Below, piece by piece: positions 34,190-34,795 of a stretch of DNA of 64,000 nucleotides. Under the pieces are notes generated by a model. That model worked only from the letters and a program-made list of their open reading frames with translations, made no database searches and had not been told where the DNA came from. The stretch lies in the NCBI RefSeq assembly GCF_044324785.1, contig NZ_CP172127.1; one strand, 5' to 3'. The translations under genes were made by a program, and so were the position numbers. The DNA is from Escherichia coli (lineage in GTDB: Bacteria; Pseudomonadota; Gammaproteobacteria; Enterobacterales; Enterobacteriaceae). Position 1 is the stretch's first letter. Each line of letters begins with the position of its first letter.

Positions 34190-34795
34190 ATTTTGCGACA
34201 TTCATGAATTCAGTCATTCCTCCCTCCAGCGGTAGCCGTACACCTGTTTCACCCAGCGACCGCGACCGTCGCCATGACCCAGATCCGTCGCCGTCAGCGC
34301 CAGTGACTCCTTTTCGCTGAATCCCTGCGCCAGTATCCAGGACTGTCGTATAACGGGGACGCCCGCCTTTGGTGCCAAATACCACTTTTAGCCGGGTTTC
34401 ACCGCGTTCAGCCACGTTTTCAGCGACTGTGAACTCTGTACCGCCTCCTGCGAACGCAGCCCCATCAGCCGCGCAATCTCCAGCGCTGCTGCCAGCCCTG
34501 CGTCCTGAGTACGGGCTTTCTCCATCACCTGCCTGCGTCCAGCCTGTCTCAGCACGGCCCGCAACGCTGCCATTTCGTTTTGCAACGTTCGTAAACCAAT
34601 ATCCAGCTCCAGCCGTTCCTCAATGTAGCATTCGATATGGCGAACCTTGATCTGCTCCACCCGCTGGATCTGGATATTCAGCGCCCGTAAATGTTCACTG
34701 AACCGTTTTGTAATATGGATACGGTCATTCACCGTTTTGAAGCTGCCGCCCGCTTTCTTCGCCAGCGCCTTCATTTCACTGCTTAATTTACTCAT
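34190..34795 (-). pseudogene. Truncated second tyrosine-recombinase remnant (N-terminal SAM-like domain only)
   Basis: ORF 34388..34795 (..VEQIKVRHIECYIEERLELDIGLRTLQNEMAALRAVLRQAG..) looks like an integrase N-terminal domain; the downstream frame (..VVFGTKGGRPRYTTV..) changes and stops, so the catalytic domain is missing. Confidence 0.4.

Follow-up and report, generated by a model that had tools for sequence, protein, structure and literature searches.

A dead backbone gene on a tRNA-Asn island

We analysed a window of 64,000 nucleotides from Escherichia coli (contig NZ_CP172127.1), which contains on its minus strand, at positions 34214-34795, a pseudogene located on an island that is inserted at a tRNA-Asn gene next to a P4-type integrase gene. 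This sequence is the dead remnant of a backbone gene of the island, the intact product of which comprises 294 amino acids (aa) and probably acts as a relaxase of the MpsA/MOB_M type, not as a second integrase. The feature as such is real but ordinary: a decayed member of a known family that is already annotated in RefSeq. It resides on a small island carrying an Rhs toxin, on which the intact forms of both mobility enzymes have been lost.

34214-34795, minus strand: pseudogene of a 294-aa protein with the Pfam domains PF12834 and PF12835 (MpsA-like, tyrosine-recombinase fold), identified by Pfam, alignment with intact alleles, RefSeq and tblastn

A minus-strand open reading frame (ORF) of 135 aa at 34388-34795 matched PF12834 ('Phage integrase, N-terminal') over profile positions 1-90 of 91 with E=5e-41 and a score of 139.6 bits (gathering cut-off 22). 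The last 48 residues of this ORF corresponded to positions 17-64 of PF12835 ('Integrase_1', E=5.6e-14), and an ORF in the adjacent frame (34188-34415), which contains the motif TKGGRPR, continued the same domain with positions 65-91 (E=7.3e-8). The PF12835 scores of the two ORFs were 52.8 and 32.9 bits, respectively (cut-off 23). In a third fragment (34214-34378), the C-terminal residues ...DLGHGDGRGRWVKQVYGYRWREE* of the intact protein are preserved. By tblastn with the intact 294-aa relative P0004, positions 34795-34217 were covered in three pieces. The similarity to the family is far beyond chance. E. coli strain N3 (NZ_CP031609.1) has the same sequence in this region (100% identity), and there precisely the stretch corresponding to 34214-34795 carries the RefSeq label 'phage integrase N-terminal domain-containing protein, frameshifted'. 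The window copy is therefore called the N3 copy below.

A preliminary description of the region had reported a truncated recombinase remnant at 34190-34795, consisting of a minus-strand ORF with an integrase-like N-terminal domain and an adjacent frame keeping TKGGRPR. Both parts were recovered, and the tblastn search together with the comparison with intact relatives revealed a truncated, frameshifted remnant of a gene with tyrosine-recombinase fold. The assignment had been made dependent on a significant similarity to tyrosine recombinases, which is strong in the Pfam and tblastn matches. Two details had to be changed. The true extent is slightly shorter (34214-34795), and the label 'recombinase' fits the fold but probably not the function, as the family is homologous to MpsA, the relaxase of Salmonella genomic island 1 (SGI1).

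Inactivating deletions

The lesions were mapped by a nucleotide alignment of N3 with two intact genes and three other strains. The intact relatives P0001, P0003 and P0004 all comprise 294 aa, and three deletions distinguish the N3 copy from the intact gene. An in-frame deletion of 99 bp between 34531 and 34530, flanked by the imperfect repeats GCAGGTG(G/A)TGGAG, has removed 33 codons of the inter-domain linker. The frameshift is due to the loss of 10 bp (AGCCATTTCC) between 34407 and 34406. The third deletion, comprising 194 bp between 34334 and 34333 and bordered in the intact gene exactly by two 9-bp CTGGCGCAG repeats, takes out the codons of H241 and R244, i.e., the catalytic H-x-x-R box. 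As the 10-bp and the 194-bp deletions add up to 204 bp, the original frame is restored behind them. The 73 bp in between are read out of frame and contain a stop codon at 34388-34390. Out of the six catalytic residues, only R147 can still be translated from the ATG; K179 is located in the shifted frame past the 10-bp deletion, and H275 and Y287 lie beyond the in-frame stop. The full catalytic set R-K-H-R-(H/W)-Y is not present in one frame of the window copy.

The 194-bp deletion was common to N3 and the strains 1190, 19KM1831 and CFSAN018748. The 10-bp deletion was found in N3 and 19KM1831 only and the 99-bp deletion in N3 and CFSAN018748 only (compared loci L002, L098 and L099). This four-gamete pattern of the 10-bp and 99-bp deletions in the four strains requires recurrence or recombination. 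The N3 segment was matched at an identity of at least 95% in 68 of 5,426 complete E. coli genomes, and some version of the gene occurred in 525 E. coli genomes at 583 places, always on the chromosome. In an evenly spaced sample of these carriers, the gene was mostly annotated as an intact 'integrase domain-containing protein'. About one tenth of the complete E. coli genomes carry this family under the label 'integrase', though its closest studied relative is a relaxase.

Fold and catalytic residues of the intact protein

An AlphaFold2 model of P0004 (84 sequences) gave a predicted local distance difference test value (pLDDT) of 96.2 and exhibited a two-domain fold composed of a helical core-binding domain and a catalytic domain. 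In Foldseek searches against the PDB, XerA, IntI4, Tn1549 Int, XerH, lambda Int and Cre were retrieved with this model at a probability of 1.00. Residues R147, K179, H241, R244, H275 and Y287 are invariant or nearly so in the 84 sequences. Judging from the model and these residues, the intact protein has the fold and the chemistry of a tyrosine recombinase. It has the two-domain fold and the R-K-H-R-H-Y set in common with XerA, XerC, XerD, XerH, IntI4, Cre and the core of lambda Int. The 294-aa family is devoid of an arm-binding domain. The sequence similarity to the simple tyrosine recombinases is marginal. While intact P0004 reached 137 bits with PF12834 and 197.9 bits with PF12835, PF00589 scored 24.9 bits and thus below the cut-off of 27.1. 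The family profile yielded weak matches to XerC and XerD and, in a sequence search of the PDB, only marginal ones to XerA and XerD; a sequence search of the PDB with the single protein gave no useful match.

The complete catalytic set, the Xer/Cre-like arrangement of the two domains and the weak profile matches to XerC, XerD and XerA would also agree with a genuine site-specific recombinase, which resolves multimers of the circular form or rearranges or captures DNA at the sequence CTGGYGCAG. The window copy would then functionally be a dead second recombinase. We regard this explanation as unlikely, since the closest functionally studied relative is a relaxase and in view of the observations on the CTGGYGCAG copies around the gene that are given below.

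Much less likely still is a role of the family as a DNA-binding regulator with recombinase fold, similar to the repressors MrpR, YopR and SroF of SPbeta-like phages, that binds to the CTGGYGCAG arrays. The recombinase fold is alike, Foldseek lists SroF, YopR and MrpR at lower scores (ranks 26, 34, 40, 43 and 49), and the protein is often named 'DNA-binding protein' in the sources. Moreover, as with these phage repressors, there are many candidate DNA sites around the gene, namely oriented repeats resembling binding sites that cover its own promoter region. On the other hand, the structural matches to the repressors are the weaker ones, with template modelling scores (TM-scores) of 0.38-0.53 compared to 0.55-0.62 for most of the top true recombinases. 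The strict conservation of all six catalytic residues including the tyrosine nucleophile in the 84 sequences is unexpected for a pure repressor.

Relationship to MpsA and other MOB_M relaxases

Transfer of SGI1 requires mpsA, mpsB and an origin of transfer (oriT) of 125 bp upstream of mpsA (Kiss et al. 2019, PMC6414798), and PF12835 has been used as a signature of MpsA-like proteins (PMC10484663). We located the mpsA gene of SGI1 via a published knock-out primer. MpsA matched PF12835 with E=4e-11, and its alignment with the family profile by hhalign extended over both domains (241 columns, probability 99.0%, E=3.3e-18). In BLASTP, MpsA and P0004 were 27% identical over 153 aa (E=1e-5). The signatures GLRxEE, GTKGGRxR, HxxR and (D/E)LGHG are common to MpsA and the family, which is thus homologous to an experimentally defined MOB_M member. 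There are also parallels in the genetic context. MpsA belongs to the same Pfam family PF12835. Its gene lies on an integrative island beside that of the integrase, a separate protein, and directly follows conserved structured non-coding DNA, which in SGI1 comprises oriT and the sgm small RNA (sgm-sRNA). In contrast to SGI1, the upstream element of the family studied here is EFASI (see below) and not oriT_SGI1 or sgm-sRNA, the integrase partner is of the P4 type and acts at tRNA genes instead of trmE, and the window copy is a pseudogene.

Another relative is ORF57 ('xerC') of SGI-4, an integrative and conjugative element (ICE) of monophasic S. Typhimurium ST34, for which PF12834 and PF12835 are listed in the authors' table (PMC6543542). 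ORF57 was 48% identical to P0004 over the 133 residues available and is part of the conserved core of the conjugative element. SGI-4 is a self-transmissible MPF_G element of approximately 80 kb, whereas the N3 island has 10.5 kb and no transfer genes. According to a preprint (10.64898/2026.01.13.699239), MOB_M relaxases are the commonest chromosomal relaxases in six focal species including E. coli, Salmonella and Klebsiella, are missed by standard tools and occasionally annotated as integrases, adjoin an integrase in 96%, and are found in ICEs with MPF_G or alone in mobilisable islands. The same preprint states that SGI-4 has one MOB_M relaxase, which presumably is ORF57.

Proximity to an integrase was also observed for the family studied here. 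It was surveyed in 79 loci from different Enterobacterales species, which were obtained with a 16-sequence alignment and fetched with 5-kb flanks. A homologue of the P4-type integrase was present in the flanks of 62 loci, and in the window the distance between the two genes is 1.36 kb. A Pantoea plasmid harboring a homologue contains MPF_G genes and is typed 'non-mobilizable', i.e., without a recognised relaxase. On the basis of these sequence comparisons, the intact gene most likely encodes a mobilisation relaxase of the MOB_M type rather than a second integrase.

Several observations weigh against this conclusion. The identity to MpsA is just about 25-27%, and the catalytic set is complete as in a fully competent recombinase. 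In a tblastn search of low sensitivity, SGI1 MpsB gave nothing better than chance-level matches (E of at least 0.46) in the window and in five intact loci, and thus no MpsB homologue was detected close to the gene; MobK and TcpM are also without MpsB. The oriT/sgm-sRNA region of SGI1 neither showed similarity to EFASI nor contained a CTGGYGCAG array, and SGI-4 possesses in addition a TraI-like protein (ORF86). Finally, the context in Pectobacterium with an Ash protein and a P4-alpha-like primase resembles a satellite phage and is not obviously conjugative. In Pectobacterium aroidearum (L080, 6079-8644), the gene is followed by genes for an Ash-family protein and a primase-helicase (Zn_Ribbon_Prim, Toprim_3, AAA_25), indicating that the family also occurs in islands of the satellite phage type.

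One island with a single pair of attachment sites

The borders of the island and its integrase gene were identified as follows:

31352-31427, plus strand: tRNA-Asn gene, the integration target (ARAGORN; Rfam tRNA, 72.6 bits)
31412-31431: left attachment site (attL) core CCAGTCAGAGGAGCCAAATT at the 3' end of the tRNA-Asn gene (repeat search and direct comparison of the ends)
41956-41975, plus strand: right attachment site (attR), a perfect copy, 20 bp long, of the tRNA-Asn 3' end (sequence search and comparison with attL)
31589-32850, plus strand: P4-type tyrosine integrase, pseudogene (RefSeq 'frameshifted'; three-frame translation)

From attL to attR, the island measures about 10.5 kb. A tRNA target, an integrase with an Arm-DNA-bind_3 domain and a repeat at the far border are all present, as expected for integrative islands that use a P4-type integrase and a tRNA gene. 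The integrase gene contains one frameshift near 32030, resulting in the overlapping ORFs 31487-32179 and 32029-32850, and RefSeq and the three-frame translation agree with the preliminary description that this gene is frameshifted. In strain 1190 and in locus L008 it is intact and encodes 420 aa; intact homologues contain PF13356, PF22022 and PF00589.

Blastn comparisons revealed that the block 31328-36585 (5.3 kb), including the non-coding spacer between the integrase and the 294-aa gene, is collinear with the loci L008, L015 and L016. The order is tRNA-Asn, P4-type integrase, spacer, 294-aa gene, EFASI, a gene for an HTH_35 protein, a gene for a 153-aa protein and C4 RNA. L008, which is inserted at asnT and carries type VI secretion cargo, was 84-91% identical and contains the 420-aa integrase gene and the 294-aa gene both in intact form. 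L015 (asnT, Rhs cargo, 90-95% identity) and L016 (yeeO-linked tRNA-Asn as in N3, 78-93% identity) have an integrase pseudogene and an intact 294-aa gene, while strain 1190 shows the reverse, an intact integrase gene and a dead 294-aa gene. In the loci L008-L011, the intact 294-aa gene lies next to the intact 420-aa integrase gene in the same order, and in Salmonella this gene order was found at another chromosomal site. Apart from the integrase homologues, the flanks of the 79 surveyed loci contained a homologue of the HTH_35 protein in 48 cases and of the 153-aa protein in 24 cases, and in 70 loci an EFASI-like sequence was situated directly upstream of the gene. The gene, EFASI, the integrase and the module of HTH_35 protein, 153-aa protein and C4 RNA constitute one inherited block within one attL/attR pair.

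The preliminary description had taken the remnant as a sign that the island is a decayed mosaic resulting from more than one insertion event. That the island has decayed is correct, as integrase gene and 294-aa gene are both pseudogenes. A separate mobile element inserted in or near the integrase island, giving a mosaic of at least two insertions, is however very unlikely as the source of the remnant. Such an origin could be supposed because the gene also occurs without a P4-type integrase nearby, namely on plasmids and in 17 of the 79 loci, which had no integrase homologue in the flanks fetched, because the module is oriented opposite to the integrase in some islands (L003, L021 and L022), and because tandem islands exist at this hotspot in Salmonella India. 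There, two islands are arranged in tandem between yeeO and amn (L096, 14001-26646). Yet both islands come with a P4-type integrase and an intact 294-aa gene of their own. Between 31431 and 41956 of the window, no further copy of the att core was found even when two mismatches were allowed, so that no additional att-like junction which would bound a second recombinase gene was seen. Together with the collinearity of the whole block, spacer included, with islands in which both genes are intact, and with the pairing of gene and integrase in 62 loci from different species, the single att pair indicates that the gene regularly accompanies the integrase as part of the backbone. By these data, the idea of a second insertion is largely refuted, and the remnant should not be taken as evidence of repeated insertions when such islands are annotated. 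As a side note, the Salmonella India record is labelled as a plasmid but resembles a segment of the chromosome.

EFASI and repeated motifs around the gene

The pseudogene is surrounded by the following non-coding elements:

34851-34978, minus strand: full-length EFASI element (Rfam RF02957; cmscan 100.8 bits, gathering score 51.2, E=2.4e-20)
33466-34852, minus strand: six copies of CTGG[C/T]GCAG in gene sense, starting at 33466, 33495, 33688, 34131, 34325 and 34844
35126-35484, plus strand: TCTGGTGCAG upstream of EFASI, four copies oriented opposite to the gene, with starts at 35126, 35153, 35288 and 35476
33560-33650, minus strand: conserved stretch of about 85 nt in the 3' flank of the gene (nhmmer)

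The EFASI match spans positions 1-133 of the 133 model positions, with 55 nt between its end and the start codon (ATG) of the pseudogene. The element was found at the same position in the intact loci L003 and L008, and seven of its base pairs are supported by compensatory changes in 25 homologous sequences. Rfam explains the name as 'Enterobacteriaceae, Frequently Around STAXI and Integrases', places the motif upstream of integrase-encoding genes and considers it a probable trans-acting small RNA (sRNA). Its score above the cut-off and its location upstream of an integrase-like gene are in line with this description. STAXI, the usual neighbour of EFASI, was not matched in 31000-43000, nor at E≤10 in 32800-36900. 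The equivalent interval of SGI1 contains an essential small RNA next to oriT. By analogy, the fixed position of EFASI in front of an MpsA-like gene suggests a role that may be associated with oriT or similar to that of sgm-sRNA.

The motif (T)CTGG[C/T]GCAG occurs 21 times in the 64-kb window compared to 2.5 copies expected, and ten of these copies reside within 33466-35484. Similarly, TCTGGTGCA was found six times (0.52 expected), five of the copies lying in the array 35126-35484 or at 33689. Copies in gene sense are found from the 3' flank of the gene as far as the 3' edge of EFASI, on whose other side the motif lies on the opposite strand. Both the position and the strand of the motif are conserved in 59 loci of other species. 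Between -1000 and -150, these loci contained 104 copies in opposite sense and eight in the same sense, whereas from -250 to 1.7 kb past the stop codon 235 copies in the same sense were counted compared to 36 in opposite sense. The remaining 424 kb harbored only 73 copies. Conservation does not extend into the sequences beside the motif copies, which often follow one another at spacings of 26-31 bp. A comparison of the motif with the divergence of the protein revealed the same motif, although sparser, in a distant clade (57-62% identity) and none around the homologue on the Pantoea plasmid.

The arrays also speak for the recombinase explanation introduced above: the gene lies among ten copies of an oriented motif of 9-10 bp, and two of these copies precisely bound the 194-bp deletion, whose junction is the copy at 34325. 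In addition, in L003 a cargo of reverse transcriptase and AAA_21 genes lies between the gene and the conserved 3' element. We nevertheless gave less weight to a site-specific origin of this deletion at the two motif copies, because unrelated short direct repeats border both the 99-bp deletion and another decay allele (P0010), as is typical of slippage. The GCAGGTG-type repeats were seen in the alignment, and the GCGCTGGA repeat of P0010 was deduced from the protein sequence. As other deletion alleles use unrelated short repeats, slippage accounts for the 194-bp deletion as well. Inversion or cassette exchange at the motif copies was rejected. Among the loci compared, no variant of this kind with breakpoints at motif copies was detected, and intact genes matched as single collinear pieces. 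The cargo boundary of L003 does not coincide with a motif copy, as the homology to N3 extends about 73 bp past the copy located there. The motif copies also do not form inverted pairs with a spacer of 6-8 bp, and no paired inverted sites of the kind used by simple tyrosine recombinases were recognised.

The 3' element contains an invariant core of 30 nt, TAAGGGTAACAGCGCC(A/T)GACCGGAAAGGGCC. By nhmmer it was detected in 32 of the 79 loci, always on the strand of the gene and mostly 30-600 nt past the stop codon. A conserved fold of the element was not found (-4.5 kcal/mol, no covariation). In E. coli, the element was present in 459 genomes at 491 places, compared to 525 genomes and 583 places for the gene. 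We rejected the possibility that orphan copies of the element mimic an oriT, as its distribution tracks that of the gene. SGI1 has neither polar motif arrays nor the 3' element. The arrays and the 3' element are candidate binding or oriT sites. The arrays and the invariant 3' core are also the sole features for which no connection was found in the papers and databases searched.

Possible mobilisation of the island

If the intact protein is an MpsA-like relaxase as proposed here, the P4-type integrase would excise the island at attL and attR. The MpsA-like protein would then process a cis site next to its own gene, for which the EFASI region, the polar CTGGYGCAG arrays and the conserved 3' element are candidates. 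A co-resident conjugative element may finally transfer the excised island. The cis elements of N3 have remained intact and scored as well as those of intact loci. Since the integrase gene and the 294-aa gene are both pseudogenes in N3, the island with its Rhs toxin cargo cannot leave its site without enzymes provided in trans.

More speculatively, and with the odds clearly against it, the polar arrays and the 30-nt core may be the very sites bound and nicked by a tyrosine-recombinase-like relaxase. The Rhs island of N3 would then be an 'oriT-only' hitcher in the making, transferable by help of an integrase and a relaxase provided in trans by a related island. If true, the arrangement of cis sites would be defined for the first time for the chromosomal MOB_M relaxases, which are abundant. 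The mechanism of tyrosine-recombinase-like relaxases has been termed a mystery in the literature, and EFASI, the oriented arrays of 9-10 bp and the invariant 3' core provide concrete candidate sites for it. If genes of this family are counted as integrases, nested and tandem elements are overestimated and islands open to conjugative mobilisation are overlooked.

Further features of the island and the asn hotspot

The remaining parts of the island are listed below:

33052-33182 and 33280-33410: tandem duplication in the AT-rich spacer, 228-bp spacing, 73% identical (repeat search)
35713-35901, minus strand: HTH_35 (Ner-like) DNA-binding protein of the backbone (Pfam PF13693, E=1.5e-23)
35898-36359, minus strand: 153-aa backbone protein, overlapping the start of the HTH_35 gene (ORF list, RefSeq coding sequence)
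36413-36501, minus strand: C4-type antisense RNA (RF01695, 62.2 bits, above the gathering score)
36523-36598, minus strand: a1/b1 target, isrK-like region (RF03163, 43.8 bits; RF01394, 43.7 bits; both just below the gathering scores)
36881-41062, plus strand: RHS element core protein, cargo (ORF list, RefSeq)
41118-41666, plus strand: TPR protein, cargo, downstream of RHS (ORF list, RefSeq)

The spacer of 1.36 kb separates the integrase gene from the remnant of the 294-aa gene. The stretch duplicated in it is present as a single copy in L008 and L016 according to blastn, and it includes an imperfect palindrome of 42 nt at 33076-33161. The gene of the 153-aa protein was found at the same position in L008-L011. 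C4 RNA and its target are located upstream of the genes for the 153-aa and HTH_35 proteins, an arrangement also seen in L008. The pair of C4 and isrK-like RNAs represents an immunity module in the style of P1 and P4 on a non-phage island.

The cargo consists of the RHS core protein, which has 1393 aa and a divergent C-terminal tip, and the TPR protein, presumed to be the immunity protein of the Rhs module. In sister islands, the cargo slot is occupied by other Rhs tips, type VI secretion genes, or reverse transcriptase and AAA_21 ATPase genes. A weak Rfam match to manA-II (41912-42067, plus strand, 30.9 bits, cut-off 100) overlaps attR and is probably spurious. The window contains three tRNA-Asn genes within 4.3 kb (27119-27194, 29528-29603 and 31352-31427), and the sequence of the tRNA-Asn 3' end recurs at 57228-57243, where presumably a fourth asn gene is located. 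The region is an asn tRNA hotspot, at which several island types compete for identical target sites.

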